DNA of 64,000 nucleotides from Desulfobulbaceae bacterium (lineage in GTDB: Bacteria; Desulfobacterota; Desulfobulbia; Desulfobulbales; SURF-16), in contig JAHLLM010000006.1 of assembly GCA_020444175.1 (NCBI GenBank), forward strand, positions 4,204 through 68,203, read 5' to 3'. The position numbers and the translations under genes are program-made. A model generated the notes under the pieces. That model searched no databases. It had not been told where the DNA came from and saw nothing but the letters and a program-made list of their open reading frames with translations. Numbering within the stretch: position 1 is the first letter of the stretch; each line of letters starts with the position of its first letter. Below are positions 1-64,000 of the stretch, piece by piece.

Positions 1-2372
1 GTATCATTCCCGCCCCCTCCCTGGAGCACATCATTGCCAAAACCGCCAAAAAGGATGTCATCTCCCGATTCCGGGGCATCAAGTACATTGAAATTTTCAA
101 GAGTTACGGAAGTGGCATACCCTTCTACGGCATACACCATCTGAAAATGAAGTGAGGAGATATCTCCGGGGCTCATCACTCCCAAATCAAGATAGCCGTC
201 ACCGTAGAGCAGATCGTTTCCGGCATGTCCAGAGAGCATGTCATTGCCGGCAGATCCGGTGACCACATCGTTTCCGGAGTCGCCGCATGCCGTGTCGTTG
301 CCTACACCACCAGCCAGGAAATCATTATCTGCACCACCGGAAAGGATATCGTCGCCATAACCACCACTTATGACATCCATGCCGGTGTCGCCTTTGAGAA
401 TATCAGCCATACCCGTGTTTCCCCAGGGATTGAGCAAGGCATATTCCGTAGGGTCGCTGCTTGTCCACTCGAATTCGCCGGAAATCAGGTCATTACCGCT
501 GCCGCCGATAATATAATCACTGCCTGCCAGTCCGATAAGCTGGTCATTGCCTGCTCCGCCATCGATCTGCAAATTTGGCGGCACCGCTCCGGTCATGGCA
601 AATTCATCATTGTTAAACACATAGTACCCATCGATCAAAGCATAGGCGCTGGTAACATCGTCGCCTTCCATGCCGGTAAGGACTCGATCGGCGGCGGCTG
701 CTTCGTAAAGACCGATGCCGAAATCACTGCTTACGAAATCTGCCGCACTGGTCTGCAGCTCAAAGGTGATGCTGTCAGTGTCATTCAGCACCAGGTGACC
801 AGGGGAATTGAAGGTCAGGGTGAAGTTGCTGTCGCTCAGGGATCTGTAAACATTGCTGGCTCCATCACGGACAAAAGGGCCGGCAAGGGTTTCCCCCTGG
901 TAGACAATATAGTTGAGGCCTGTGTCCACAATGGTGTCGTTGCCTTCGATGATATAAGTGTCTACACCATCACCGCCAACCATAATGTCGTTGTCCGCAC
1001 CACCGGTTAGAATATCGGCTCCCGCGCCTCCTTCGAGGTAGTCAGCTCCTGCTCCGCCGATCAAAACATCATCTTTTTCTCCGCCATAGATATGATCAAC
1101 TTGAGCGGTTCCTGTGATGGTGTCTTTCCCGTCACCGCCTTTGATGCAGTCGATATTACTGACAGTGACGCCGCTCAGGTCGATGGTGTCGTCCCCGTTT
1201 GTTCCGGCGATGATGTTTATGCCAGCCCCACCGTCGATGACTTCAATACCATGGTTGGTGAAATTATGGACGCGGATAGTATCGTCAACACTGCCTGCGA
1301 TATCGGCGCCCTTAATAGTGTCGGTTCCGTCGCCACCCTGAAAGATGTCGTAGGCAGTGTCGGTGCCTTCAATAATGAAGGTATCGTTATCGGCTCCACC
1401 GTCCATGGTGTCTTGGCCTTGGCCACCGATAAGGGTGTCATTGCCGGAGCCGCCTTCGAGGGTGTCGTTGCCTGCGTCAGTATTCTGCCAGTCACCATAA
1501 AGAAGATCGTTACCTGTGCCGCCGGTAAGATGGTCATTCACATTCGTGTTCGCGTCAACTTTCTCAGTGCCGGAGACGATGTTATTTCCACTATCACCAT
1601 CCCGCGCTTCATAAACCCACGTTCTATTGGTACCGTTATCGTCAGTGAATGTGAACTTATGATTCCCGTTTGCCAGCAGTTCAGCGGACTGCAAGGTTTG
1701 GTCAAATGGCTCTAAAAAAACTGGAATATCATCACCATATGTCTCTTCAAGGCGATCCTCCCAGCGATTTGTATCAGTACGGGGCCTGGTCAGAAAATTT
1801 TTACCCCAAATATCTTCGGCTATTTCCGAGGCTAGCCACCAGCAGTCATCTATGCTCATGGTTGAAGTCACCTGACTGCCGAAGGTTGCTTGCAGGTGGG
1901 CCAGTTCCGCGTCCTGCCCTCCCTGTAGTTCAGTGCCGTCAGGCAGAAATCTGCCGATGCGGTTGGATATTCCGATATCCGTGCCGGTACTCGTTAAAAT
2001 TTGTTGCCTGACAATGAAACTCATTGCCGTAGCCTGAGCTTCATCCATATCATTATTTATAATGTCATCGAAGTTGTTACGAGTGTCTGTAAGGTGATAT
2101 TTTTTTTGATCATAAAAATGGGTCAACTCATGACCAAGGAGGCGAACAAAGTCGGTGCCAGTAGCCCTTATTCCAATATCCTCACTATCTGGGTTATAAG
2201 CATTTGAAACTGGATCATACTCAATCAATCGAGATCCATTGTTAAACATATGCAGCAAAGAAATGAGCAAATTTGAGCTGTTTATCAGGTCAAGTTCGCT
2301 CTGGGTAAAATTAACTCCCCGCACATCGTCAAACAATGTGTCATTGAAAACAAAAGGTGTAGTAGTAGCCAT
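1..2372 (-). CDS. RTX-type calcium-binding repeat protein (GGxGxD nonapeptides) with an N-terminal HExxH zincin-like region; C-terminus lies outside the window
   Basis: Absent from the ORF track because it runs off the window. The reverse strand has ATG at 2372-2370 (MATTTPFVFNDTLFDD...LLGHELTHFYDQ). The same frame at bases 80-3 reads ...DDILFGGFGNDVLQGGGGND. Plus-strand ORFs 225-1010 and 1092-1715 are antisense shadows of the repeats. Confidence 0.8.
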   Translation of the reverse strand, partial: MATTTPFVFNDTLFDDVRGVNFTQSELDLINSSNLLISLLHMFNNGSRLIEYDPVSNAYNPDSEDIGIRATGTDFVRLLGHELTHFYDQKKYHLTDTRNNFDDIINNDMDEAQATAMSFIVRQQILTSTGTDIGISNRIGRFLPDGTELQGGQDAELAHLQATFGSQVTSTMSIDDCWWLASEIAEDIWGKNFLTRPRTDTNRWEDRLEETYGDDIPVFLEPFDQTLQSAELLANGNHKFTFTDDNGTNRTWVYEARDGDSGNNIVSGTEKVDANTNVNDHLTGGTGNDLLYGDWQNTDAGNDTLEGGSGNDTLIGGQGQDTMDGGADNDTFIIEGTDTAYDIFQGGDGTDTIKGADIAGSVDDTIRVHNFTNHGIEVIDGGAGINIIAGTNGDDTIDLSGVTVSNIDCIKGGDGKDTITGTAQVDHIYGGEKDDVLIGGAGADYLEGGAGADILTGGADNDIMVGGDGVDTYIIEGNDTIVDTGLNYIVYQGETLAGPFVRDGASNVYRSLSDSNFTLTFNSPGHLVLNDTDSITFELQTSAADFVSSDFGIGLYEAAAADRVLTGMEGDDVTSAYALIDGYYVFNNDEFAMTGAVPPNLQIDGGAGNDQLIGLAGSDYIIGGSGNDLISGEFEWTSSDPTEYALLNPWGNTGMADILKGDTGMDVISGGYGDDILSGGADNDFLAGGVGNDTACGDSGNDVVTGSAGNDMLSGHAGNDLLYGDGYLDLGVMSPGDISSLHFQMVYAVEGYATSVTLENFNVLDAPESGDDILFGGFGNDVLQGGGGND

Positions 2373-16636: not shown

Positions 16637-18844
16637 TTACCCAGAGTGATGATTGACTATCGACTCAACCAACTTCTTCGCGCCATTAGAATTCAGAAAT
16701 TTGGACGCATAGTCGATGGTTAGAAGTTCCTCCGCCAAAAAGTGGTCATATTTTTCGGTTATTTTGTTACGAACACGGCTGGCAAGGTATTTTTCGTCTG
16801 ATATGCCAGAGGCAAGGATTTCTTCCAATATGTTGAACACTTCCTCTTCGCTTTTGTTCTCAATTGAAAGGACGAAATTGCTCTTTTCGACACGAAATCC
16901 TTCGTTCATCAATTGGAGCAACAGGGTGTAGATGCTTTGGTCGCCATCCCAGCAAAACAGCAGCACATCCTCGCCAGCCTGGACCACCGAGCGCCTTGCA
17001 AGACCCATCGAGTGAAAGTTCTGGCGACCTTCCAAAAGAAGTTTTCTTGACTTTGCATCAAGGAACGAGAATTGGTCTGCCCCAGAGTAAATATCTAGCA
17101 TGGCTGATCGTATGCGCTTATGGACACGTGCCCCATGGCCCCCGAACATAGGCGGTTTGCCAGCTTTTGTAGGGGTGAGTTCTATGACTTTACGTTGGCT
17201 ATCTACCGCTACCACAACCCAGCGTCTTCCTGCGAATATTAGATAGCTTCCCTCTGTTACAGGGTATTCGATGGGAAGGCTCCCAAGCGTTTTGTTGCCC
17301 GAAATCAACTTGTATTCTTCTGGAGTTTTGAACGCCGAAAAGAACTCGTAATGGTTCACTATCCGCTCGCCTTTATCTCCAAGAAATAAGGTTCCGTCAG
17401 AGGCTTGAGAAATGAGGTCTTCGGCTGCTATCGCCCGCAGGAGGTCACCATAGGTAGCTTGTGTGATTTTGTCGAAAGATCCGCCTTTGCAGAGAAGTTT
17501 CCAGAGTGGTAGAGGGCGGCCCCCGCCACGCTCTGCCAGTACTGAGAGGGTTTGCTGAACGAGGGTTGAAAAGTCGAGCGCATCCGCCTGCGGCGGTTCA
17601 TACCATTTCTCTAAAAGCAACTGAACCATCGCAATCGACTGAAAAAGCTGGGCTCTTAGCCTGTCGATGACAGAACTTTTCGGCGTCAGTTTCTCTTCCC
17701 TGACGTATAGCCGCATTATGCCAGCCTCGCCAGCCCTTCTGCCGGAGCGCCCTAAGCGCTGGCGCAGGGCTGCAACGGAGGGAGGGGAGTCCAACTGGGC
17801 AATGCTAGAAACATTGCCCACATCGATGCCAAGTTCTAATGTGTTTGTACAGACGATAGAAGTCGGGCGGCTTTTGTCCTTCAGACGGATTTCGGCTTCT
17901 TCCCGAATCTCTTTCGATAAGCTGCCGTGGTGAGGGAGAAATTCATTTGGAACACGGTCATCTTCAGAAAGCCTTCTGAGGATGTCGGCGCATATTTCAA
18001 CATCTCGACGGCGGTTGGCGAAGATAAGGTTGTCCGAGCCCCGCAACACCTTAAATATGTGTGCGCAGATGTCTTTCAGGTTCCCATCGCCGACATCCTC
18101 ATTTTGACCGTTAAGCTGTGCTTCATCGCCAGAGACAACGCAGCCCCTTATTTGGAGGCGTATCTCCTGGGCGTCGTCATCGGATTGGATCTGTTTTACG
18201 AAAGGTCCCCCTTTGGGACGCATGAACTCAGCAGCAAGTCCCATGTCGCCCAGGGTGGCGCTGAGTCCGATTCGAGGGATACTTCGCCCGGTTGCCACCT
18301 CTGTCCTGTGGAGGAGAGATTGGAGTTGCCGGCCACGTACGCTGCCGATAAAAGAGTGCAGCTCATCAATCACTACGTGAGAAAGACTGCCGAACAAGCG
18401 TCCGATCTGGTGACCTCTGATTACGAACAATGCCTCCAGCGATTCGGGGGTGATGATCAGAATTCCTGAGGGTTTCTTTAGGACTTTGTGTTTTCTGTTT
18501 TGGGCTACGTCACCATGCCATTTGTGTACGGCTATCTTCAGCCCTTCGCACATCTGCTCGATGCGCCGGAATTGATCGTTTATCAGCGCCTTCAAGGGGC
18601 TCACACAAAGAACGTCTATCCCGGTTGAAGACTTGTCAACCAGCTGGGAACATAGCGGAAGGAAGACAGCCTCCGTCTTTCCACCGGCTGTCGCCGCGCT
18701 GATAATCAGATCACCTCTACCGCACAGGACGAAGCGGATGGCTTCCTCCTGGATGTAGTGCAGTTCCTCCCATCCCTCACGCCAGATCCACTTGCGGACC
18801 TTCTCGTGGAGGAGATCAAAAGAGCTGGAGCTATCTTCAGTCAT
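16637..18844 (-). CDS. sngC: Shango-type DEAD/DEAH (Lhr-like) helicase
   Basis: 735-aa ORF with helicase motifs AATAGGKTEA (I), VIDELH (II), SATLGD (III) and QRLGRSGRR (VI). It starts 6 nt after the preceding ATPase gene ends. Confidence 0.8.
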   Translation of the reverse strand: MTEDSSSSFDLLHEKVRKWIWREGWEELHYIQEEAIRFVLCGRGDLIISAATAGGKTEAVFLPLCSQLVDKSSTGIDVLCVSPLKALINDQFRRIEQMCEGLKIAVHKWHGDVAQNRKHKVLKKPSGILIITPESLEALFVIRGHQIGRLFGSLSHVVIDELHSFIGSVRGRQLQSLLHRTEVATGRSIPRIGLSATLGDMGLAAEFMRPKGGPFVKQIQSDDDAQEIRLQIRGCVVSGDEAQLNGQNEDVGDGNLKDICAHIFKVLRGSDNLIFANRRRDVEICADILRRLSEDDRVPNEFLPHHGSLSKEIREEAEIRLKDKSRPTSIVCTNTLELGIDVGNVSSIAQLDSPPSVAALRQRLGRSGRRAGEAGIMRLYVREEKLTPKSSVIDRLRAQLFQSIAMVQLLLEKWYEPPQADALDFSTLVQQTLSVLAERGGGRPLPLWKLLCKGGSFDKITQATYGDLLRAIAAEDLISQASDGTLFLGDKGERIVNHYEFFSAFKTPEEYKLISGNKTLGSLPIEYPVTEGSYLIFAGRRWVVVAVDSQRKVIELTPTKAGKPPMFGGHGARVHKRIRSAMLDIYSGADQFSFLDAKSRKLLLEGRQNFHSMGLARRSVVQAGEDVLLFCWDGDQSIYTLLLQLMNEGFRVEKSNFVLSIENKSEEEVFNILEEILASGISDEKYLASRVRNKITEKYDHFLAEELLTIDYASKFLNSNGAKKLVESIVNHHSG

Positions 18845-18850
18845 CTTGCC

Positions 18851-20167
18851 TTATAGCGTGAAAGAAGTGAGTTCGTCGTCCTCATCTCCTTCATCCTCCA
18901 TCCCTAATAAAGTGCTGGGATCGATGTCGGCTTTGAATTCGAGACCCCCCAGATGGTTCTCCCATCTTTGGTCTGGATGCTGAAGCAAAATCACGAGCAG
19001 GTCCAAGAAATATTTGGCAAAGTTCCTTGGTGTAGCGAAGTGAGAGGCCCCAACCTTGTTGTAGCAATAGTCCATAAAGGCTTGAATCCCTTGGTCGCTT
19101 ATAAGCTCTCTACCCGAATCCGCCGAGGCGACAACGATTCTTAACTTTTGAAGGAGGACGAAGGTCTCTTCTTTAGACAAAGTCGTAAGACGGATCACTG
19201 GGCCGCTCATATCCACAAGCCCGTTTTTAGCGAAAGAATTCTCCGCAAGCCTCGATTGGAGGGCTTCATAGCTGAAGAGACCTCTTCGGGTATCTGTGAG
19301 AAACTCAGGTGTGCCTCCCATCAGGAACCCCAGGCCCTCGGTAGAGCCCTGCAGGCAGTCGTTCAGGATGCGCAGAATCTGTTCGTAGTTGGCATTGCGG
19401 GACTGGGTATGGGAAAGCTTGTAAAGGTTGACCATCTCATCGAGGCAGACTAGCAATCCATCGTAACCTGCGAGTTTGACAAATCGTGCCATAAGTTTCA
19501 GGTAATCATAGAAACCAGCGTCATCGACAAAAGTGCGCACACCTAAAGCTGCCCTGGCGTCTGTTTTGGTTGTAAACTCACCCCGTAGCCACCGCACGGC
19601 ATCAGCCTTCAACTGATCGTTACCGGTGTCATGACCACGCCAGTATGCCCCGATAACATCTGCAAAATCGTAACCACCCACCATCTCGGATAGCTTCTCC
19701 AACCGTTCAGCGATTACTACACCAGGATTGGTTCCATTTGCCTTGGCTTCACCTAAGGCCGAAGAAACGAATCGCTCCACCACTGAAGCCAAGGCATTGC
19801 CTTCCGGCTTGGTGCGAGTAGACATGTTGCGCATCAACTCAGCGAAAAGGCTACGCGCCTGCCCGCCCGTACCATGTAGCCGTCTATTCGGATCAAGGTC
19901 AGCATGTGCTGTCACGAGTTTTTTGTGTAATGCGACTGTACGGACAAGTGAGAGGAAAAAGCTTTTCCCCGAGCCGTAGTCTCCGATTATCAGGCGGATT
20001 CCGGAGCCGCCATCTATGATTCTGTTGATATCGTTTATAAGAGCTTCTATCTCTCGAACACGTCCCACCTGTACGTGTTGCTGGCCAATTCTAGGCACCA
20101 CGCCGGCACGCAAAGATTGTATGATAGCGTCTCTCTCTTTTGGTCTAATCTTCGTTGCGTTGCTCAT
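18851..20167 (-). CDS. sngB: Shango-type P-loop ATPase (DUF2791-like)
   Basis: Walker A is GDYGSGKSFF and Walker B-like is LLVCLDEM. The start was moved to the ATG at 20167-20165, which overlaps the upstream TGA (ATGA). The longer ORF-track start would overlap sngA by 61 nt. Confidence 0.8.
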   Translation of the reverse strand: MSNATKIRPKERDAIIQSLRAGVVPRIGQQHVQVGRVREIEALINDINRIIDGGSGIRLIIGDYGSGKSFFLSLVRTVALHKKLVTAHADLDPNRRLHGTGGQARSLFAELMRNMSTRTKPEGNALASVVERFVSSALGEAKANGTNPGVVIAERLEKLSEMVGGYDFADVIGAYWRGHDTGNDQLKADAVRWLRGEFTTKTDARAALGVRTFVDDAGFYDYLKLMARFVKLAGYDGLLVCLDEMVNLYKLSHTQSRNANYEQILRILNDCLQGSTEGLGFLMGGTPEFLTDTRRGLFSYEALQSRLAENSFAKNGLVDMSGPVIRLTTLSKEETFVLLQKLRIVVASADSGRELISDQGIQAFMDYCYNKVGASHFATPRNFAKYFLDLLVILLQHPDQRWENHLGGLEFKADIDPSTLLGMEDEGDEDDELTSFTL

Positions 20168-22425
20168 GCTGTCATCTCTCCCAGAACCGCGTGGTCCACT
20201 TCTATTGGATCTTCCCCCTCGCATAGAGGCATATCTGCGATTTCAAATGCCGCTTCGTTTATCATTTCAATGGCACCATCCAACATCAGCCCCAATTCGT
20301 CCACCAAACTCTCCAGTTCCTGGCGCGCCCAGGATGTTTGCTCTTTCAGCCGTTTTAGAAGTGTTGAATGTGCGTGATCCAATCCGGCAACAGTATCTCC
20401 AGTCTCAACTATTGTATGAACTGGGATTGTCTCTTCTTCCTCTGAGAAAATGTCACTAAGTAGCGTGGACACAGCAGCGGTCTCGGCCAAAGTACTTTGA
20501 ATCCTCTCCATATCCAGCGTGACTGCAGCCTGAGGCGGTTGCTGCTTCTGATGGGGGATTTTGTATCCTTGTGGTACGGTGCTGGCGGTACGTACTGTAA
20601 TAGGTTCAGAGGCAGCGGGAGAAGCTATGCTCATGGATGAATGGAGTTGGCTGTGAAGAGCCGTCTCGGGAAAGCCGAGCATATTGTACATTTTGTTCAA
20701 CACCTTGATTTCTTTAGGATCTACCTTCCCATCAGCGCAAGCTACCGAAACCAAGAAGCGACCTACCTCAATCCGCTGATGTTCGCCAATTCCCTCAAGT
20801 TTTTTCTTCACCCCCGCAAAACCAGGCTGAGCGACAAGAAGCCACTTAATATGAGCACGAAGTCTCACTCGCTCAGTAGAAGAAAGGTGAAGAGAAGACT
20901 CCAAATGCTCTTCCATGCGCTGCTTTTCTTCTTCGTCTATGTGACCGTCAGCGCCGGATACCATTGCAGCCAAGTGCAATACAAGCATTGCCGCTGAATA
21001 CTCTCGGCTGGGAGACGAGATTTTTTCCCCTTCCATGCGGAATAAGAGCACCTTGTCGCTTTCTGAAAGAGACTTGCCGCCAAATCGAACATCGGGTTCC
21101 AACCCATAATTCCACCGTTCAAGCAACTGCGCGAACTGCACGGTTTCTTTTTTTGTAAGTTTGCCGGGATTATTTGATGGCCAGAAGTGCAGCAGATCGG
21201 TAGCATCCAATATTGATTCATTGGATTCAGATAGCGTTCGCTGAAGTAACGCCTTCAACTCTCCAGCTTTGGCGCCTGATGTTTCCCCAGCCAATTCATC
21301 CGGCACGAGAGAAAGGGCTGCTAACGATCCTCTGGAATCTGGATTTCTCCCTAAATAACGGCTGTAGGCGTCAAGATCGTCACAGCAGGCGTAAGCAATT
21401 TCTAGAAATTTGTTCAATGGGCGAACTACCTTCGAGACATCCGGAAGGTCAAGTTCATGACTCCAGCCAGTCCCACTGAAGGAGCCACTTGCCGGACGAT
21501 AATCGAGAGTCAGGAGGCTTTTGTTGGGTTTTATCTTTATCCCTTCGCCATACTTTGCCTGATAGCGGATCTTGAACAGTTTTGCGAACTCTTCTGGGCA
21601 ACGTTGTGCTGGTGTCCTAAGTCTTGTCTCTGGGTGCATCTCCATCCAAGCGAAAGCCCAATCAGCCGGTATCGGCCTGCCATCTTTAACAATTTGCCCA
21701 AGGCCGGCTTTCAAGGCAAAGGGCAAATCCCATCCATGTTTTTCCAGGGGCAGCGGAGCACTATCGAGAGTTTGGGAGATATACTCGTTTGCTCGGCAAA
21801 ACGATAGAAAGTTTCCGGCGTAATTGCGGAAAGACCCTCTATTGCCATAAATGGAAAGCAGTCGTTCAACTTCGGAGAGGATCGCAGGTACGTTAGAGGC
21901 TGCACCTGGTGAGCGTTTAGCATCGGCAAGGACTCTTCGTTCAAGCCCGTAAAAATAGAGAAAGACGTATCCAATGTCCGCCTGGGGATCGGATTTTCCG
22001 TTAGCAAGCCAAGATAGATAGGCAGCGCGCGCATCCGGTGAGATGTTAGAGTAAGAAGGCCAGTAATCGGTAAGTCGCTCGCTGAGGTCGGGGCAATTGC
22101 TGGCAATTTTTAGTTGCGGATTTATCAGTGCAGGTTCAATGTTGTAGTTACTACTTACACTCGGCAAGTTTTTGCCGACATAGAGCATCCCTCCCGGAAT
22201 GACATACTGTTCAACCTTAACCTCTTGTCCAGGAGGCACCCAAAGATTGTCCGGATTAGCAGGGTTCTTTATTCCATCCCATGCTTTTTCGTCTGAATAT
22301 GAGACATGAATCTCAAAATCTTCTGCTGTGATTTTAGGTTTTTGCGAAGTCCCGGCAATGAACTTTATGATCTTGTAAATAATGTAAATGAACACTAAAA
22401 GCCAGAAGATATCGGCCATCTGCAA
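20164..22425 (-). CDS. sngA: Shango-type TerB-domain protein (N-terminal TM helix, TerB-N-like, TerB and TerB-C-like regions)
   Basis: 753-aa ORF with N-terminal TM segment IFWLLVFIYIIYKIIKFIAG. TerB-like helices carry acidic motifs (LAAMVSGADGHIDEEEKQRMEEHL, VACADGKVDPKEIKVLNKMY). Gene order TerB-ATPase-helicase. Confidence 0.8.
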   Translation of the reverse strand: MQMADIFWLLVFIYIIYKIIKFIAGTSQKPKITAEDFEIHVSYSDEKAWDGIKNPANPDNLWVPPGQEVKVEQYVIPGGMLYVGKNLPSVSSNYNIEPALINPQLKIASNCPDLSERLTDYWPSYSNISPDARAAYLSWLANGKSDPQADIGYVFLYFYGLERRVLADAKRSPGAASNVPAILSEVERLLSIYGNRGSFRNYAGNFLSFCRANEYISQTLDSAPLPLEKHGWDLPFALKAGLGQIVKDGRPIPADWAFAWMEMHPETRLRTPAQRCPEEFAKLFKIRYQAKYGEGIKIKPNKSLLTLDYRPASGSFSGTGWSHELDLPDVSKVVRPLNKFLEIAYACCDDLDAYSRYLGRNPDSRGSLAALSLVPDELAGETSGAKAGELKALLQRTLSESNESILDATDLLHFWPSNNPGKLTKKETVQFAQLLERWNYGLEPDVRFGGKSLSESDKVLLFRMEGEKISSPSREYSAAMLVLHLAAMVSGADGHIDEEEKQRMEEHLESSLHLSSTERVRLRAHIKWLLVAQPGFAGVKKKLEGIGEHQRIEVGRFLVSVACADGKVDPKEIKVLNKMYNMLGFPETALHSQLHSSMSIASPAASEPITVRTASTVPQGYKIPHQKQQPPQAAVTLDMERIQSTLAETAAVSTLLSDIFSEEEETIPVHTIVETGDTVAGLDHAHSTLLKRLKEQTSWARQELESLVDELGLMLDGAIEMINEAAFEIADMPLCEGEDPIEVDHAVLGEMTA

Positions 22426-33919: not shown

Positions 33920-34254
33920 ATTTCCTCCTCCCTCAATAATTTTTCATTAGAGATTATATAAATTTTAGGTACCAATACCCTCTATTTAAGTCGTTACCAT
34001 CTAACAATTAGAAGTATTTCATTGTAGACGCAGAATGTAAATGTGGCATATTGTCTCATTGGAAATATCTGTTCTGTGATACTCATGAATTTTCAAGGGA
34101 ATCCTCACTACGGTATGAGGTCTCAATGTGGTTAGTCGGCTTATGCCGCACTGACTCTTCTTATCCCCTATCCCCCATGGGGGAACGAGACAAGAGAACA
34201 AATCCCCTTTTCTCGTGCTCTTTTCCCCGTAATTTTTTTGCTATTTCAACATCA

Positions 34255-34509
34255 GGCCGCGCTCTGCGTCCAGAGTCACGCCACCAGGTTAGACAAAAAC
34301 ATCCTGGTGTCATGCCGCCGGACAGGTGCAGAGCCGGAATTTTCTTCATTAGTTTATCGCTCTTTCATAACAGCAATAAGGATGCGCTTTTAGGTTTCGC
34401 GCTCTTGATTCTTTTTTTCGCCTTCCCTGTGCCCAGTGAAGGGAAGGACGAAAAAAATGGTTTTTAAGAAGATAGATCAACAAATAAACCTAACGATGAG
34501 AGGTGTGAA
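34255..34509 (+). promoter_or_regulatory. structured leader A, copy 1 (upstream of ardC)
   Basis: Aligns along its whole length with 63402-63645. It has a long imperfect hairpin at 34261-34334 and a T7/A7-armed hairpin at 34412-34457. The gagaggtgtgaaATGag start context is identical in both copies. Confidence 0.6.
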
Positions 34510-35088
34510 ATGAGCGTGAAAATTTACCAGATGATTACCGACAAAGTTTTGGAGCTTTTAGAGGCTGGGGTCATTCCTTGGGCAAAATCATGGACAGGAG
34601 CTGAACCCCAGAACGTAATTACCGGGCGGGAGTACAGGGGCATTAATGCTTTTCTTTTGGGCTGCACAGGTGCTACCCCTTACTGGTTGACATTTAACCA
34701 GGTGAAAAAGGCCGGTGGTATAGTTAAGAAGGGCGCAAAATCAATGCCTGTTATTTTCTGGAAGTGGTTGGAGAAGGAAGACCAGGAAACCGGAGAAAAA
34801 CAGAGTCACCCAATTTTAAGATATTACCGTGTTTTTAATCTCCATGATGTTGAAGGAATAGAGGCCCCGGAGGTTATCAAGCACGAAGAAGGCGAAAAGC
34901 CTGTTCCATTGTTTCAATGTGCCGCAATTATCGCCAATATGCCTCATCCGCCTGCACTGTATCATGGCAGCGCAAAGCCCTTTTATCGTCCTTGTGAGGA
35001 TGCGGTTTATATGCCTGATTTTGAAAATTTTATAAGTGCAGAAGAATATTACAGTGTGGCTTTTCATGAATTTGGCCATTATGCCTGA
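34510..35088 (+). pseudogene. ardC: ArdC-like anti-restriction protein, 5' part (interrupted)
   Basis: N-terminal ssDNA-binding-domain signatures (IPWAKSW, REYRGINAFLL, WLTFNQVKKAGG, RYYRVFN). The reading frame ends at AFHEFGHYA*, inside the HExxH motif, where the RIT inverted repeat begins. Confidence 0.8.
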
Positions 35089-35264
35089 CTTCGGATTATG
35101 CCGAGCTAATACTCTAAACTGCGCAAAAATGTTGGGTGGCTGGTATGTTTTTCGGCATAATCAAAGTGCTCCTCGGGCATCCACAAGTTGTAAGCCAAAT
35201 TTAGATTGAAAAACTCTGTCGTGAGTCCCATTCATAAGAATTTCACCTAAAACAAGGAGGACTT

Positions 35265-36515
35265 ATGACATCGGGAAAAAAATTTGGCAACACAACCACA
35301 CAAAAAGTAGAGTGGCTGGCACCTCATCGACAAATATTCATAGAAAAGCTCAAGGCACAGGGCTACGTGCTCTGTTCAATTCGCCATTATGATAGGATAG
35401 TCCGCCGATTCTGCGAGGAGATTGAACAACGCGGGCTCAGCGCCAAAGATCTTGATGGATCTGCTTTAGAAGCCATTCATGAGGCAGTATTGAGCAAAAC
35501 AGGTAAAAGCATTCACACCTATACTATGTTTTGCTTAAAGCGATTCATCAATCATCTTATTGATACTGGAATTGTCGTCCTTCCAGAGCCACAAGCTAAG
35601 GAATTGACAGCCATGGACCATCTGCGTGAGGACTATGAAACATACTTACGCAAGCAGCGTGGATTGAGTGAATCTACAATTTATCATTGCATGCGTTTTC
35701 TAGAAAGATTCATGAGTTTCCGCTTTGGTGATGTGTTAGGAGACCTGAACTCCATTACAGCGGCTGATGTTGTATCCTTCCTGTGTCAGCGCATGGCCGG
35801 TTCACAGCCTTATCGTGACAAAACACCTCCAACACATCTACGAAATTTGTTTAAGTTCCTGTTCTGGAGTGGAAAGACCAAGCGTAATTTGGCTCAAAGC
35901 ATTCCGCGTGTCGCTCAACCCAAGCACGATAATCTGCCCCGCTATCTGAAGCCGGAAGAAGTTCAACAATTACTTGAAGCGGTCCGAACAAATGATGCGA
36001 TCGGCCGCCGCAACTATGCAATGTTGCTACTGCTTGCCCGCCTTGGACTACGTGCGCCAGAGGTCATCGCAATTCAGCTCGATGATATCGACTGGCGGTC
36101 TGGTGAAATTTTGATTCGTGGCAAGGGTAAATTGCATGATCGTATGCCTCTTGTAACCGATGTTGGTGAAGCCATAGTTGATTACATCACAGACGGGCGG
36201 GTAGGAACTTCTCGTACCTTGTTTGTCACCAGTAAGGCACCTTACCATCCTTTTAAGGACGCCCAGATTCTGAACTATATCCTGAAAAAGGCACTTGTAA
36301 AAACGAAGATCAAACCGCCGCAGAAATATATTGGTTCTCATATTCTTCGCCACAGCCTTGCTACTGACATGCTTCGTCAGGGAGCTACACTTGGTGAGAT
36401 AGGTATAATACTGCGACATCGATCTCGAATGACAACAACGATCTATGCCAAGCATGATATCGATTCATTGCGAGCAATTGCCCAGACCTGGCCAAAGCAG
36501 GGAGGTGCTCAATGA
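35265..36515 (+). CDS. tyrosine recombinase, first gene of the trio
   Basis: 416 aa with LGLRAPEVIAIQLDDIDW, HILRHSLATDM and LRHRSRMTTTIYAK. The stop overlaps the next start (ATGA). Confidence 0.85.
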   Translation: MTSGKKFGNTTTQKVEWLAPHRQIFIEKLKAQGYVLCSIRHYDRIVRRFCEEIEQRGLSAKDLDGSALEAIHEAVLSKTGKSIHTYTMFCLKRFINHLIDTGIVVLPEPQAKELTAMDHLREDYETYLRKQRGLSESTIYHCMRFLERFMSFRFGDVLGDLNSITAADVVSFLCQRMAGSQPYRDKTPPTHLRNLFKFLFWSGKTKRNLAQSIPRVAQPKHDNLPRYLKPEEVQQLLEAVRTNDAIGRRNYAMLLLLARLGLRAPEVIAIQLDDIDWRSGEILIRGKGKLHDRMPLVTDVGEAIVDYITDGRVGTSRTLFVTSKAPYHPFKDAQILNYILKKALVKTKIKPPQKYIGSHILRHSLATDMLRQGATLGEIGIILRHRSRMTTTIYAKHDIDSLRAIAQTWPKQGGAQ

Positions 36516-37459
36516 CATCACTTACCACTCACCTCGAAAATTATCTCAATGTTCGGCGTAACCTTGGCTATGATCTCTCTACAGCAGAACGAGTATTACG
36601 AAGATTTACTTGTTTTGTGGATGATCAGGGTGCTGACCATATCACCGTCGATATGTTTCTACGATGGAAAGAACAATTTGGGTCAGCGAATAACAATACC
36701 TGGTCCAGACGTCTTGGGATGGTACGTTTATTTGCTGCCTGGCTCCAAGGCATTGATCCCCGCAATGAGGTACCACCCGTTGGGCTGATATCGGGAAAAA
36801 ATCATCGGCCACGGCCCTATATCTACACTCCTGAACAGATAGCAAATATTGTTTCTGCAGCAGCCAAGCTTCCTTCACCCTACGGGCTGCGGGGAAAGAC
36901 CTGTTCAACGATGTTCGGGTTGATAGCAGTCACTGGATTGCGTGTCAGCGAAGCGATCGGGCTTGACGAAAAGGATGTAGATCTCGATAACGCTGTTCTC
37001 ACCGTCAGATGTGGAAAGAACGGTAAATTCCGATTCGTACCTATTTCGTCATGTGCTGTAGATCGCCTTGGTGTTTACCGTGCTGAACGGAATAGGCTCC
37101 TTGGCACCGGTAGGTCACCGTTTTTTCTCCATGAGAGTGGTCAGCGCCCCGGAGACTGTAGTGTCAGGTATAACTTTGCACGAATCAGCCAATTCATTGG
37201 CCTTCGTGACCGTCAAGTGTTCCACAAACATGGTCGAGGTCCACGTATACATGATTTGAGGCATACGTTTGCAGCCCGTACGATCATTGACTGGTACAAG
37301 AAAGGGCTTGATCCAGATCGCGAAATGATCAAGCTCAGTACTTATCTGGGACATTCAAAGCCTGAGTACACATACTGGTACATAGAAGCAGTTCCGGAAC
37401 TGTTGCGACTTGCTTCTATGCGGGCAGAAAGATCCATAACTGCAGGGGGTGAGGCATGA
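36512..37459 (+). CDS. tyrosine recombinase, second gene of the trio
   Basis: 315 aa with TGLRVSEAIGLDEKDVDL, HDLRHTFAARTI and LGHSKPEYTYWYIE. There is an ATGA overlap at both ends. Confidence 0.85.
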   Translation: MTSLTTHLENYLNVRRNLGYDLSTAERVLRRFTCFVDDQGADHITVDMFLRWKEQFGSANNNTWSRRLGMVRLFAAWLQGIDPRNEVPPVGLISGKNHRPRPYIYTPEQIANIVSAAAKLPSPYGLRGKTCSTMFGLIAVTGLRVSEAIGLDEKDVDLDNAVLTVRCGKNGKFRFVPISSCAVDRLGVYRAERNRLLGTGRSPFFLHESGQRPGDCSVRYNFARISQFIGLRDRQVFHKHGRGPRIHDLRHTFAARTIIDWYKKGLDPDREMIKLSTYLGHSKPEYTYWYIEAVPELLRLASMRAERSITAGGEA

Positions 37460-38454
37460 AAATTTACTCACTACCCATTTATGTACAGCGGTTCTTCACC
37501 GAACGTCTCGCTACTCAACTAAAAGCCAGCCCAAATACGGTAGCAAGCTACCGAGATGCTTTCCGTCTTTTGCTGAAATACGCATCCGATCAGATTGGAC
37601 GTGCTCCTACCGATCTTCAGGTCGCCGACATAGATACCACTATCGTCGGAGGTTTTCTCGTTTTTATAGAAACCGTACGTGGCAATGGTGCCCGAAGCCG
37701 AAACACGCGACTTGCGGCTATTCGGTCATTTTTTAAGTATGTAGCAGTCAATGAACCTCAGCTCCTGCACCATTGCCAGCGTATCCTCGCTATGCCGTCA
37801 AAGCGGTATAATAAGCGTACGATAGACTATTTAAATCCTGCCGAAATCGATGCACTCCTCGCTGCACCCAATTTGACGACCTGGTACGGTCGCCGTGACC
37901 ACACTCTACTTCTACTTGCCTTACAGACTGGTCTCAGGGTGTCAGAATTAATCAACCTGACATGCGGTGATATCGTTCTGGGAACGGGGGCTCATGTTCG
38001 ATGTATGGGCAAAGGACGGAAAGAACGTTCCACGCCACTCAGAAAAGACTGTGAAGAAGCTCTACGCAATTGGCTAATGGGACATGCTGATGATGATCAA
38101 CCCAAGCCTCTCTTCGTTAGCAATCGTGGAGGACAGCTAAGTCGTGACGCCATTGAGCGTATTGTTCATAAATATGTAAAGTTGGCCTCCAGCGAGTGCG
38201 CGACGCTGAAAGATAAGAGGGTAACACCACATGTACTACGTCACAGTGCAGCAATGCAGCTTCTCCAGAACGGTGTAGATCGCACTGTAATTGCACTTTG
38301 GCTGGGCCACGAATCAGTGGAAACCACTCAGATGTATATCCACGCCAATATGGAAATGAAGGAGCAAGCCATGGCAAAAACGAAACCAGTAACTGCACCT
38401 GCTGGTCGATATAAGCCCAATGACAAGTTACTTGCCTTCCTGGAAGCACTTTGA
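37456..38454 (+). CDS. tyrosine recombinase, third gene of the trio
   Basis: 332 aa with TGLRVSELINLTCGDI, HVLRHSAAMQLL and LGHESVETTQMYIHA. Confidence 0.85.
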   Translation: MKIYSLPIYVQRFFTERLATQLKASPNTVASYRDAFRLLLKYASDQIGRAPTDLQVADIDTTIVGGFLVFIETVRGNGARSRNTRLAAIRSFFKYVAVNEPQLLHHCQRILAMPSKRYNKRTIDYLNPAEIDALLAAPNLTTWYGRRDHTLLLLALQTGLRVSELINLTCGDIVLGTGAHVRCMGKGRKERSTPLRKDCEEALRNWLMGHADDDQPKPLFVSNRGGQLSRDAIERIVHKYVKLASSECATLKDKRVTPHVLRHSAAMQLLQNGVDRTVIALWLGHESVETTQMYIHANMEMKEQAMAKTKPVTAPAGRYKPNDKLLAFLEAL

Positions 38455-38567
38455 TTATGCCGATAACCAAACCGACCAACCGGTACTGCTGGCAGTATCA
38501 ACAGTACCGGCTCGGCATAATCCGAAGTCAGGCATAATGCATGTTATGCCGATATCGGCATAAGGCT

Positions 38568-38852
38568 CATGCAACCGGCCACCAAAGCCGGTTAAGCAGG
38601 GCAGGTGTTATAGATGATATTAATTTTGGCAGTGATAAATACTCTCAAGAAGAGCTTGTGGCGGAAATGACAGCCGGTTTTTTGTGCGGTATTGCCGGGA
38701 TTGACAACAAGACTCTTGAAAACAGCGTTGCCTATATCCAGGGTTGGGTGCAACGTTTCCAGGATAAACCTAAAATGGTTGTTTTAGCTGCTGCCCAGGC
38801 GCAAAAGGCTGCAGACTATATTGTCGGTAATTTTCAGGGAGACGAAGAATAA
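38568..38852 (+). pseudogene. ardC: ArdC-like anti-restriction protein, 3' part
   Basis: The frame reads H-ATGHQSRLSR...FGSDKYSQEELVAEMTAGFLCGIAGI...NSVAYIQGWV...AAAQAQKAADYI. This is the metalloprotease-domain continuation expected after HEFGH. Confidence 0.8.
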
Positions 38853-41507: not shown

Positions 41508-41540
41508 CCGCGTTTCATTTAGGGAAAGGGGGGAAGGGAT

Positions 41541-41679
41541 AAGGATGACACTCTCCCTGGCGGGCAGGGTGTCTGCTTGCAGCTCCCTAACCCTCACTGC
41601 GCGGTGAGGGAATCAAGGTGGACAGTCGATAGCCGCGCTGTCTCTTCATCAGAAGCCCCCATCCCCGGCAGCCCGCCCT
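41541..41679 (+). repeat. structured repeat B, copy 1
   Basis: aaggatgacactctccctggcgggcagggtgtc...ccctcactgcgcggtgaggg...gacagtcg..gcgctgtc...cccggcagcccgccct. Differs from copy 2 at fewer than ten positions by eye. Confidence 0.85.
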
Positions 41680-43371: not shown

Positions 43372-43440
43372 AGTCCCTACCTTAACGGGGTAAAGCTATC
43401 CCTGGAAAGGGCGTAGGTAGTTTCTTTTCTTGCAAAATTG

Positions 43441-43580
43441 AAGGATGACACTCTCCCTGGCGGGCAGGGTGTCTGCATTCAGCTCCCTAACCCTCACTGC
43501 GGGGTGAGGGAATCAAGGTGGACAGTCGATTCCCCGCGCTGTCTCTCTATCAGAAGCCCCCATACCCGGCAGCCCGCCCT
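43441..43580 (+). repeat. structured repeat B, copy 2
   Basis: Same element as 41541-41679, in the same orientation, 70 nt after the hipA stop. Confidence 0.85.
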
Positions 43581-62698: not shown

Positions 62699-63266
62699 GG
62701 TATCACCTGAAACAGTTCATATGTTTTGTTTCAAAATACATTAAAAAATGAGCAGGTCCAGGACGAAAAAATGGTGGATTGCGGGGGAGTCAAGGAGGCG
62801 GATGCAACAGATTCGGGGAATCCGAGAAAGAGACGTGTTGTTTGAAAATAACCTGAATTTTTAGAGATTCGGTGAAACGGAGGTGAGCCCTGCTGGGAAG
62901 CAACTCTCCAAGGGATAACCGGATGAGCGGCGAATGCCGTGGTGTCGGGGGAGTCTTCGGGATCCCCAATTTTTTAGGGGCAGAATATTCGCTGCTCCTT
63001 ATGCCTCAAAAAATCCCGGGGTTTGGGGCAGAGCCCCATAAAACAAAACTCTCAACTCTAAACATTATTTTTCGTGAATAGCTGTCATCATTCATCGCGA
63101 ACAGGCTCACCCTTCAAATGTACCGAAATCAACACTTCATATTGACTTGTACTTTCTATAAATTTCTTTTCTGACATAGCACACACACAATTACCCTCCC
63201 AAATTAAAATAACCTCCCATAGTAGGACTAGCGGGGACACTTGAACGACCCTTGCATTGCTCCATT

Positions 63267-63369
63267 AAGGTTGACACTCTCCCTTCGGGCAGGGTGTCTG
63301 CTTTCAGCTCCCTAACCCTCACTGCGTGGTGAGGGGATCAAGGTTGACAGTCGGCTGAGCCGCGCTGTC
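63267..63369 (+). repeat. structured repeat B, copy 3 (3' part replaced by leader A copy 2)
   Basis: aaggttgacactctcccttcgggcagggtgtc...ccctcactgcgtggtgaggg...gacagtcggctgagccgcgctgtc. Confidence 0.8.
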
Positions 63370-63401
63370 GTCTGTTTCGCCTTCAATGGCCATCACTTTT
63401 T

Positions 63402-63645
63402 GGCCGCGCTCTGCGTCCAGAGTCCCGCCACCGGCAAACTACCCCCGGTGTCATGCCGCCGGACAGATGCAGAGCCGGAATAATCTTTTGGTGGGCACCG
63501 TTTGTTTTACACAATAAGGATGCGCTCTTAGGTTCCGCGCTCTTGATCTTTTTTTGACCTTCCCTCGGTCGAGTGAAGGGAAGGCCAAAAAAATGGTTTT
63601 TATGAAGGAAGATCAACTAACTAACCTTACATGGAGAGGTGTGAA
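63402..63645 (+). promoter_or_regulatory. structured leader A, copy 2 (upstream of the methyltransferase)
   Basis: See 34255-34509. Confidence 0.6.
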
Positions 63646-64000
63646 ATGAGTGCAATAGTCGCCAAATTGAAAGAAAAAGATCAAGATTTTGAGTGGTACC
63701 CAACAACTCATGAAGTTCTTGAATGCGTTAAGTCTGATATGCGAAATCATTTTTGTGATTATGATGGATCGTTAAAGGCGGTTAGTATCCTTGATTGTGG
63801 GGCGGGTGATGGTCGTTGTCTTGATTATCTCACTCAGTACGGGAAAAAATACGCTATCGAAAAAAGCCAAGTTCTCTTAACACACATGGACCCGGATATT
63901 TTTATTGTTGGGACTGATTTTGAGCAATCAACTTTGATTGATAAAAAGGTTGATATGGTGTTCTGTAACCCGCCTTATTCTGACTATGAAGCATGGGCAT
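63646..64000 (+). CDS. SAM-dependent DNA methyltransferase (NPPY motif), 3' end outside the window
   Basis: The product reads MSAIVAKLKEKDQDFEWYPTTHEVL..., with motif I ILDCGAGDG and motif IV VFCNPPYSDY. It runs off the window, so it is absent from the ORF track. Confidence 0.75.
   Translation, partial: MSAIVAKLKEKDQDFEWYPTTHEVLECVKSDMRNHFCDYDGSLKAVSILDCGAGDGRCLDYLTQYGKKYAIEKSQVLLTHMDPDIFIVGTDFEQSTLIDKKVDMVFCNPPYSDYEAWA

Follow-up and report, generated by a model that had tools for sequence, protein, structure and literature searches.

A structured non-coding leader shared by ardC and a DUF4942 methyltransferase gene in Desulfobulbaceae-type bacteria folds best on the template strand

Two similar leaders precede unrelated genes

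The window analysed here, a stretch of 64,000 nucleotides from contig JAHLLM010000006.1 of a Desulfobulbaceae bacterium, contains two copies of a leader of about 250 nt, one directly 5′ of an ardC gene (copy 1) and the other directly 5′ of a gene for a DUF4942 methyltransferase with an NPPY motif (copy 2). Comparing the window with itself by BLAST aligned positions 34255–34514 with 63402–63650 over 262 columns at 79.8% identity (E = 2e-58), bearing out the original prediction, made from the letters of this DNA, that the two regions correspond along their whole length. Both copies lie on the plus strand and, as had also been stated, finish in the same start context, each terminating in GAGAGGTGTGAAATGAG; homology between ardC-type and methyltransferase-type copies ends at ATGAG. 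No third copy was detected in the window using nhmmer and a covariance model.

The genes behind the two leaders were said to be unrelated, and Pfam domain assignments agree, with ArdC domains following copy 1 and a class-I methyltransferase following copy 2. The open reading frame (ORF) at 34510–35088 matches ArdcN and the beginning of the zincin MPTase-PolyVal domain, and the gene as a whole carries the single-stranded DNA (ssDNA)-binding ArdcN domain (PF08401), the zincin domain (PF18818) and the HExxH motif in the form HEFGH. The fragment is 100% identical to P0002, a DUF1738 domain-containing protein, and the ArdC reconstructed from the window shares 87% identity with P0001, an intact ArdC. 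Behind copy 2, the coding sequence specifies the N-terminal part of a class-I methyltransferase, and its amino-acid identity to cluster P0121 of DUF4942 methyltransferases is 78%; DUF4942 itself is carried by a full-length relative of 541 amino acids.

The leader belongs to a narrow family

Homologues outside the window, for which the original prediction had proposed a search, were recovered by protein-anchored look-ups and one metagenome pattern scan (L006, L017, L010/L011, L021/L022 and L023; Table 1). All are on metagenome contigs, and all precede only ardC or DUF4942 methyltransferase genes. The contigs add four lineages to the family, which we counted as six distinct copies beyond chance, and the minus-strand alignment used below comprises seven sequences. 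Leaders of the same gene type are closer to one another (83.8% identity between copy 1 and the orthologous L006 leader for ardC; 89.5–90.7% between copy 2 and the L010 and L021 leaders for the methyltransferase) than are leaders of different type (76.7–79.5%), which indicates an old duplication after which each paralogue stayed with its own gene.

No leader was found near more distant relatives of ArdC (57–58% identity; L014 and L016), near methyltransferase relatives at 63–64% identity (L012 and L013) or in related elements reached by TrbI-anchored walks (L019 and L020), and the family is therefore narrow. Neither copy matched any of the 72,556 plasmids in PLSDB, F and IncI plasmids included (blastn, word size 11), no match was found among 50,697 phage records, and two pattern scans of viral contigs returned zero matches. 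A scan of a genome collection with the hairpin I pattern gave five matches, all due to chance, the pattern being over-strict in requiring GCCGCC where some copies have GCCTCC; the metagenome pattern scan gave one real locus (L010) and one chance match (L009). A covariance model of hairpin I run over 208 kb retrieved known copies only. Searching the translated leader against 1.84 billion protein representatives retrieved only the window's own ORF and three unrelated repeat proteins.

Two long hairpins with compensatory changes

Each leader can form two long imperfect hairpins (Table 1). The consensus of the seven-sequence alignment was taken on the minus strand, the template for both ardC and the methyltransferase gene. 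In it, hairpin I has CCG/GCTCTGC as its basal stem, then a bulge of 4 nt, a semi-paired middle part and an apex of 6–7 bp. Folding reproduced the pairing originally predicted for copy 1, of GCTCTGC, GTCC and CACCAGG with CCTGGTG, GGAC and GCAGAGC. The internal segments between these stems are conserved, as had been noted, but on the minus strand they are for the most part paired, through G·T wobbles. With DNA parameters hairpin I of copy 1 folded to −20.4 kcal/mol with 25 pairs on the minus strand and to −13.2 kcal/mol with 18 pairs on the plus strand, with covariance model scores of 94.5 and 24.3 bits, respectively; in copy 2 the corresponding energies were −18.3 and −13.6 kcal/mol. An RP4-type nic site, ATCCTG, in the hairpin I loop of copy 1 was considered and dismissed, as it is unconserved in the other copies.

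The linker at 34341–34371, between hairpin I and the invariant CAATAAGGATGCGC block, varies more than any other part of the leader. Hairpin II is built from the pairings TTAGGTTT/AAACCTAA, TTGATC/GATCAA, T7–8/A7–8 and CCTTCCCT/AGGGAAGG, with a one-sided 17-nt bulge; at its base it stops about 17 nt short of the start codon. The hairpin with T7 and A7 arms that had been placed at 34412–34457 is real and forms the tip of this larger structure. Of the compensation claimed for its stem, one flip from C:G to G:C (copy 1 versus the rest) holds, whereas the next position is a mismatch or a wobble.

The apex of hairpin I had likewise been described as differing between the window copies in a pairing-preserving way. 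Between those two copies one A:T pair is lost, but true double substitutions do occur in the further copies (CACAAAA/TTTTGTG and CATCGG/CCGATG), so that the covariation proposed earlier as a check is present. Four to five apical pairs of hairpin I covary, and changes on both sides were found in seven pairs, five of them in this apex. In the minus-strand alignment, 96.5% of paired cells were complementary, compared with 45–55% when the 3′ partners were slid, and none of 500 shuffles reached the observed covariation score. Stems and blocks are conserved throughout the leader alignment, and the loops and the linker vary and contain insertions and deletions.

The template strand folds better than the sense strand

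Folding the leaders with DNA and RNA parameters, as the original prediction had suggested for the two window copies, reproduced both hairpins and, with DNA parameters, consistently gave the better structure on the minus strand. The minimum energies for the minus and plus strands were −49.1 and −37.9 kcal/mol for copy 1 (z scores against dinucleotide shuffles of −5.1 and −2.4), −46.2 and −39.3 kcal/mol for copy 2 (−4.3 and −2.5), −57.4 and −44.7 kcal/mol for L006 (−8.1 and −5.2) and −51.4 and −42.7 kcal/mol for L010 (−6.3 and −5.4). The minus strand thus had an advantage of 7–13 kcal/mol in all four full-length lineages, and the consensus folds differed in the same direction (−75.5 versus −64.0 kcal/mol). 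The difference between strands had z scores of −5.6, −3.3, −5.0 and −3.4 for copy 1, copy 2, L006 and L010, respectively, with 0 of 150 shuffles as extreme. As the shuffled differences had a mean near 0 and a standard deviation of about 2, the observed values lie far outside their distribution, which excludes an effect of composition.

With RNA parameters the minus strand was also preferred in three copies (−87.6 versus −79.8, −90.0 versus −78.7 and −87.1 versus −82.4 kcal/mol), whereas window copy 2 showed no such preference in energy (−81.5 versus −82.3 kcal/mol; z of −2.5 versus −2.1). The asymmetry in hairpin I arises because the internal segments form C·A mismatches on the plus strand and G·T wobbles on the minus strand. 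Counting G·U against A·C cells as a strand test (38 of 462 versus 31 of 456) proved circular, as each strand's predicted fold recruits wobbles, and we therefore relied on the energy difference relative to shuffles. A repeat module lying 5′ of the leaders, described below, served as a control and showed no strand asymmetry of folding. The earlier statement that sequence alone cannot separate an ssDNA promoter from a cis-regulatory RNA was therefore too pessimistic: the template strand folds significantly better, and this asymmetry speaks for an ssDNA element, or for an antisense RNA, more than for an mRNA leader.

Coding, RNA-family and terminator signals

No ORF is conserved across the leader copies, as all six frames contain stops or frame shifts between copies; the leader is thus non-coding, and a conserved minus-strand protein, which would have told against the original prediction, is excluded. 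Public gene calls do cover the leader, namely the 113-amino-acid P0254 (34126–34467) and the N-terminally extended ArdC and methyltransferase calls P0253 and P0242. These calls are copy-specific artefacts of one frame that is open in some copies.

The whole window gave no match to Rfam 15 at gathering thresholds, and relaxing the cut-off to E values up to 10 yielded only generic hairpin matches, such as microRNA precursors, far below threshold. Terminator-like sites numbered zero in either leader region, and hairpin II has its T-run 5′ and its A-run 3′ on both strands, unlike an intrinsic terminator. No antisense promoter is conserved near the start codon: the candidate TTCACA is absent in L006 and L017, and no −10 element occurs at the right spacing. 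A sigma-54 promoter reading of TGGCCGCGCTCTGC was rejected, its GG-to-GC spacing being 9 nt and differing between copies.

A hairpin module lies upstream of each leader

Every leader copy is preceded by a module of three hairpins (Table 1). Hairpin 1 of this module is often closed by a C-UUCG-G tetraloop, hairpins 2 and 3 show compensatory changes, and a T-rich run lies directly 3′ of the last hairpin. Given a terminator-like module 5′ of each leader, read-through from upstream is unlikely and the leader probably needs a transcription start of its own. Lone copies of the module also lie on both sides of a HipBA-like cassette, where they carry the extra conserved tail AAGCCCCC.T.CCCGGCAGCCCGCCC. 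Probably the module either works at the RNA level, for instance as a small RNA or as a terminator, or represents a family of repeats in this lineage; an integron attC reading was discarded because the module has three separate hairpins and lacks R″/R′ core sites. The module is also where short-read assemblies of this genome break, L007 being an example.

Table 1 Leaders, hairpins, modules and associated genes in the window and in related contigs
Feature	Position	Strand	Basis or remark
Leader copy 1, 5′ of ardC	34255–34509	+	About 80% identical to copy 2; nhmmer E 3e-83
Leader copy 2, 5′ of DUF4942/NPPY methyltransferase	63402–63645	+	BLAST, nhmmer
Hairpin I, copy 1, long imperfect, apex 34279–34312	34257–34337	−	Best fold on minus strand
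Hairpin I, copy 2, apex 63426–63453	63404–63478	−	Covariance model, 109.9 bits
Hairpin II, copy 1, nested, about 105 nt	34390–34493	−	Minus-strand consensus folds and pair counts for helices 1–3
Hairpin II, copy 2, tip 63550–63593	63528–63629	−	Consensus folds, pair counts
Invariant block CAATAAGGATGCGC with small hairpin	34372–34386; copy 2 equivalent 63510–63524		Invariant in 7 of 7 aligned copies
Shared ribosome-binding site and start codon GAGAGGTGTGAAATG	34497–34512; copy 2 equivalent 63633–63648	+	Identical in both window copies
ardC, N-terminal part (ArdcN and zincin start, to HEFGH), interrupted	34510–35076	+	PF08401, E 9e-30
ardC, C-terminal part (rest of MPTase-PolyVal)	38541–38852	+	PF18818 positions 52–126
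Methyltransferase gene, 5′ part, cut by window end	63646–64000	+	Methyltransf_11/25, NPPY motif
L006 leader	2045–2294		5′ of intact ArdC, 87% identical
L017 leader	5′-truncated		5′ of ardC
L010 leader (= L011)	L010 4804–5049		5′ of DUF4942 methyltransferase
L021 leader (= L022)	L021 9755–10002		5′ of DUF4942 methyltransferase
L023 leader	around 126–374		5′ of DUF4942 methyltransferase
Three-hairpin module, about 120 nt, preceding every leader copy	63259–63378	+	nhmmer, alignment
Further module copies in the window	41540–41646; 43439–43547; partial 34100–34162		
Module copies in relatives	L006 1824–1945, 3541–3661; L010 4662–4782; L021 9613–9733		

Surroundings and conjugative context

The window is a mosaic defence island with TerB-N, a DEAD helicase, a BrxC/D-like ATPase, AbiEii, HipA, HigBA, SNF2 and SWIM proteins and several integrases or fragments of them. 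Three clustered genes on the minus strand (16637–22425) resemble a defence system and encode a TerB-N/TerB/TerB-C protein, a BrxC/D-like ATPase and a DEAD/DEAH helicase; close to them lie a putative AbiC, AbiEii, HipA, HigBA and an SNF2 helicase with DUF3670 beside a SWIM-finger protein. The ardC gene is split directly after its HEFGH motif by a 3.46-kb insertion (35077–38539) that makes it a pseudogene, the C-terminal part resuming beyond it. This insertion encodes three consecutive tyrosine recombinases (35265–36515, 36512–37459 and 37456–38454), ends in 37-nt terminal inverted repeats (35077–35113 and 38503–38539) with a second, sub-terminal pair, and looks like a 'recombinase in trio' element.

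The original prediction regarded the two genes as typical cargo of the leading region of conjugative elements. The window lacks conjugation genes, but on related contigs TrbI- and TraG-type genes do lie beside the leader, and a leading-region placement is suggested by gene identity together with these contigs. In L006 the leader–ardC unit lies 1.6 kb downstream of trbI in the same orientation, and in L021/L022 the leader–methyltransferase unit abuts, and is convergent with, the genes trbH-trbI-traG(type IV coupling protein)-traF-x-traD and a primase-like gene. The TrbI proteins of L006 and L021 are only 46% identical, which indicates that one and the same leader works with two distinct transfer systems. 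Neither oriT nor a relaxase was recovered.

At the end of the trb/tra cluster, where a TraC-like primase gene would sit, lies a gene for an 899-amino-acid fusion of ArdC-N, MPTase zincin, DUF5710 and Toprim_3 (L021 13732–16431; L022 5203–7902; 3′ part at L011 8646–9188), the N-terminus of which is 33% identical to the free-standing, leader-bearing ArdC. Between the leader–methyltransferase unit and the transfer genes lies variable cargo: an AcrVA2-like protein (L011 3394–4425 and L023 2378–3409), small ORFs and a resolvase, also in L011, and a GmrSD_C protein (L021 11917–12648). This slot looks like a hot spot for anti-defence and defence genes. On another element, the TrbI of which is 66% identical to that of L006, a nearly perfect G+C-rich hairpin of about 170 nt (L019, approximately 1090–1260) precedes ardA (1268–1819) and reaches almost to its ribosome-binding site (RBS), with a free energy (ΔG) of about −96 kcal/mol per 267 nt. 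That hairpin is unrelated to the leader in sequence and looks much closer to a classical Frpo-type stem-loop.

Proposed function and alternatives

The leader is a genuine non-coding, structured and repeated element before two unrelated anti-restriction-type genes. We tentatively propose, as the likeliest reading although we hold it at somewhat less than even confidence, that it is a local counterpart, or functional analogue, of the Frpo/ssi ssDNA promoters. It may constitute a portable expression cassette of conjugative elements in Desulfobulbaceae-type bacteria, running from the structured part to the RBS and ATG and placed before genes that would act early against host restriction, namely ArdC and an orphan DUF4942 methyltransferase. 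The two long imperfect hairpins would have been selected to form on the template strand and would work while that strand is single-stranded, that is, as the transferred strand just inside the recipient. There the leader could bring in RNA polymerase or a primase and might stall synthesis of the complementary strand as well, so that the downstream gene would be transcribed before the DNA turns double-stranded. That the minus strand is the one transferred, that transcription starts inside the leader and which polymerase is involved are all suppositions of this model. In a variant of it that we consider decidedly improbable, the start signal would lack sigma-70 boxes, and two wobble-rich hairpins of the transferred strand would be recognized either by RNA polymerase in an unconventional mode, akin to a fork or bubble, or by the ArdC-N/Toprim primase that the element itself encodes.

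The strand asymmetry bears directly on the choice between explanations. A duplex operator cannot produce any strand asymmetry, and an mRNA leader should fold best on the sense strand; the candidates left are a single-stranded template strand and an antisense RNA. We judge it unlikely that the leader is instead a 5′ untranslated region (UTR) of the mRNA that acts in cis. In that alternative transcription would begin from a promoter at or 5′ of hairpin I, and the plus-strand hairpins would govern how the ardC and methyltransferase mRNAs are translated, how stable they are or where they terminate, for example by a protein binding the conserved AAGGA/GGGAAGGA purine blocks. The unit does stop precisely at the RBS and ATG, significant structure is present on the plus strand as well (z of −2.1 to −3.8 with RNA parameters and to about −5.4 with DNA parameters), and pairing is possible between the ardC-type linker and the RBS region, with a swap from A:U to U:A between copy 1 and L006. 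The C-UUCG-G tetraloops of the module, which are typical of RNA, also suggest plus-sense transcription nearby (an argument made as in PMC2864571). The sense strand nevertheless folds worse in every copy by a margin far beyond shuffles, it is the sense strand of hairpin I that carries the C·A mismatches, Rfam offers no match, and no upstream promoter was found, with the last module hairpin being terminator-like. A cis-antisense RNA read from the minus strand, pairing with the 5′ UTR and repressing the ardC or methyltransferase mRNA in the manner of FinP/traJ or Sok/hok, would fit the minus-strand preference that three copies retain under RNA parameters as well as the conserved G·U wobbles. We think it quite improbable, given that copy 2 lacks this preference, that no minus-strand promoter is conserved near the start codon and that A-runs, not a U-run, follow both hairpins on the minus strand. 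The ssDNA reading is favoured over it because neither an antisense promoter nor a terminator was found, and because of the gene content, the precedent of the F plasmid and the link to transfer genes.

Shared regulatory regions before co-regulated genes are known from the KorA/KorB and ArdK systems, and the leader could in principle be an ordinary duplex promoter–operator whose inverted repeats bind a repressor encoded by the element; both genes would stay off until transfer, when dilution of the repressor would induce them zygotically, as in the regulons of IncP, IncW and IncN. A shared regulatory region before two co-regulated genes would then be expected, and invariant blocks do lie outside the stems. 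However, nested repeats of 75–105 bp with variable loops and compensatory changes are properties of a folded single strand, a double-stranded site cannot give rise to strand asymmetry of folding, and no sigma-70 hexamers were found, making this explanation very unlikely. Least likely of all, and in our view barely credible, is a functionless duplicate that hitch-hiked with gene 5′ ends through recent recombination between elements. The methyltransferase genes do show a sharp mosaic boundary: their first 25 codons (63646–63720 versus L010 5048–5122) have 93% nucleotide and 92% third-position identity, and past about 75 nt the third-position identity drops abruptly to 52–64%. This drop reflects either a recombination breakpoint about 75 nt into the gene or a functional element that reaches into the coding region. 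Against mere hitch-hiking, paralogous leaders at 77–79% identity keep every stem and invariant blocks of 14–23 nt while loops and linkers have diverged with insertions and deletions, compensatory changes are present, and the leader unit has been kept beside two different conjugation systems.

Several observations weigh against the ssDNA promoter reading. No sigma-70 −35/−10 pair matching at least 9 of 12 positions was found on either strand in or just 5′ of the leader, and weaker candidates are not conserved across copies. The same scan found nothing on either strand of the validated F-plasmid Frpo2 (L018 4165–4660), and as it misses a real promoter of this kind, the missing boxes are weak evidence against an ssDNA promoter. 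Strand asymmetry is no known hallmark of ssDNA promoters, and in the F-plasmid controls Frpo1, Frpo2 and the region upstream of ardA the asymmetry had the same sign but was weak and not significant (z of −0.3 to −1.3); conserved G·U-type wobbles are, moreover, more typical of RNA. The leader forms a hairpin of about 80 nt and another of about 105 nt, whereas Frpo/ssi elements form one stem-loop of about 280 nt, and its −46.2 to −57.4 kcal/mol per approximately 250 nt compares with −72.4, −74.7 and −95.4 kcal/mol for the F controls. The covariation is supportive but not conclusive, coming as it does from three to four independent lineages with few events in one helix. Recombination may explain part of the conservation of the leader, which in the ardC pair, at 83.8% identity, is barely above the third codon positions of the gene (78.8%), a point that also suits the hitch-hiking explanation. 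Finally, the window contains no transfer or conjugation genes and its ardC is disrupted, and the orientation of the leader–gene unit relative to the transfer genes is opposite in L006 and L021; if the relaxase gene follows the tra genes, at most one of these arrangements fits.

The idea of an undescribed ssDNA promoter family, as first put forward, therefore stands in part. The strand asymmetry leans towards ssDNA, but promoter boxes, a stem-loop with a ΔG below −75 kcal/mol and similarity to Frpo/ssi sequences were not found. We regard the leader as real and constrained and as probably new, and do not assign it to the Frpo/ssi family because defining features of that family fail or lack support.

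Comparison with known systems

Orientation-specific folded ssDNA elements on the transferred or displaced strand are familiar from rolling-circle plasmids (ssoA and ssoU), ICEBs1 (sso1) and RSF1010 (ssiA and ssiB), and these elements recruit RNA polymerase or a plasmid primase and have conserved motifs such as RS-B and CS-6. They differ from the leader in being uncoupled from the RBS and start codon of any gene. The related element L021 encodes a primase-like protein of the ArdC-N/Toprim type. The leader resembles FinP/traJ in overlapping the 5′ UTR and RBS of a transfer-related gene and in folding best on the antisense strand; it differs in that no antisense promoter or terminator was found and in being, at about 250 nt, far longer than FinP-type RNAs.

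Another structured non-coding motif, STAXI (RF01728), likewise occurs near Ssb, topoisomerase, antirestriction and integrase genes of mobile DNA, and its authors were similarly undecided between RNA and single-stranded DNA (PMC2864571). STAXI, however, consists of tandem pseudoknot repeats with UUCG loops in Enterobacteriales, whereas the leader has no tandem pseudoknot units and gave no match to RF01728 even at E values up to 10.

The closest parallel is with the Frpo/ssi elements, of which the known set comprises class 1 (Frpo1, Frpo2 and ssi1–3) and classes 2 and 3, 5′ of ardA/klcA and M.EcoGIX on IncF and IncI plasmids. Like the leader, they are non-coding, 250–350 nt long and placed directly 5′ of anti-restriction, methyltransferase or SSB-type genes (PMC9849209, PMC12672017, PMC11541004), and leading regions are enriched in anti-defence and methyltransferase genes (PMC11541004). 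Frpo1 and Frpo2 of the F plasmid are 92% identical and precede unrelated leading-region genes (PMC9849209), just as the leader at 77–79% identity occurs in similar copies before unrelated early genes on one strand. Both kinds of element form long imperfect hairpins, and in the F controls the template fold is at least as good as the sense fold. In addition, such structures might serve as roadblocks and thereby keep the DNA single-stranded for longer (bioRxiv 10.64898/2026.01.09.698686). The leader differs in lacking sequence similarity to these elements (PLSDB, blastn) and recognizable −35/−10 boxes, in its strong strand asymmetry, which the F elements lack, and in falling short of the cut-off of a published ssDNA-promoter screen, a ΔG below −75 kcal/mol per 300 nt (PMC12672017). 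It is known from sequence alone, and its hosts are Desulfobulbaceae-type bacteria with Trb/IncP-like transfer genes.

To our knowledge, ssDNA promoters have been validated only on enterobacterial plasmids of the IncF and IncI groups. That anti-defence genes are expressed early, off the incoming single strand, is now regarded as crucial for a plasmid to become established. If the leader is indeed a counterpart of Frpo/ssi, ssDNA-dependent early expression would be widespread, achievable with other architectures, and would extend to the Desulfobacterota. Were the signal also free of sigma-70 boxes, Desulfobacterota, including relatives of cable bacteria, would express anti-restriction genes immediately through a different recognition logic. 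Should it instead act as an antisense RNA or as the leader of an mRNA, it would still be a new conserved motif controlling anti-restriction genes. The folding asymmetry, strong here and weak in the F elements, offers a cheap computational handle that can separate a template-strand DNA element from an mRNA leader and points to precise mutations.

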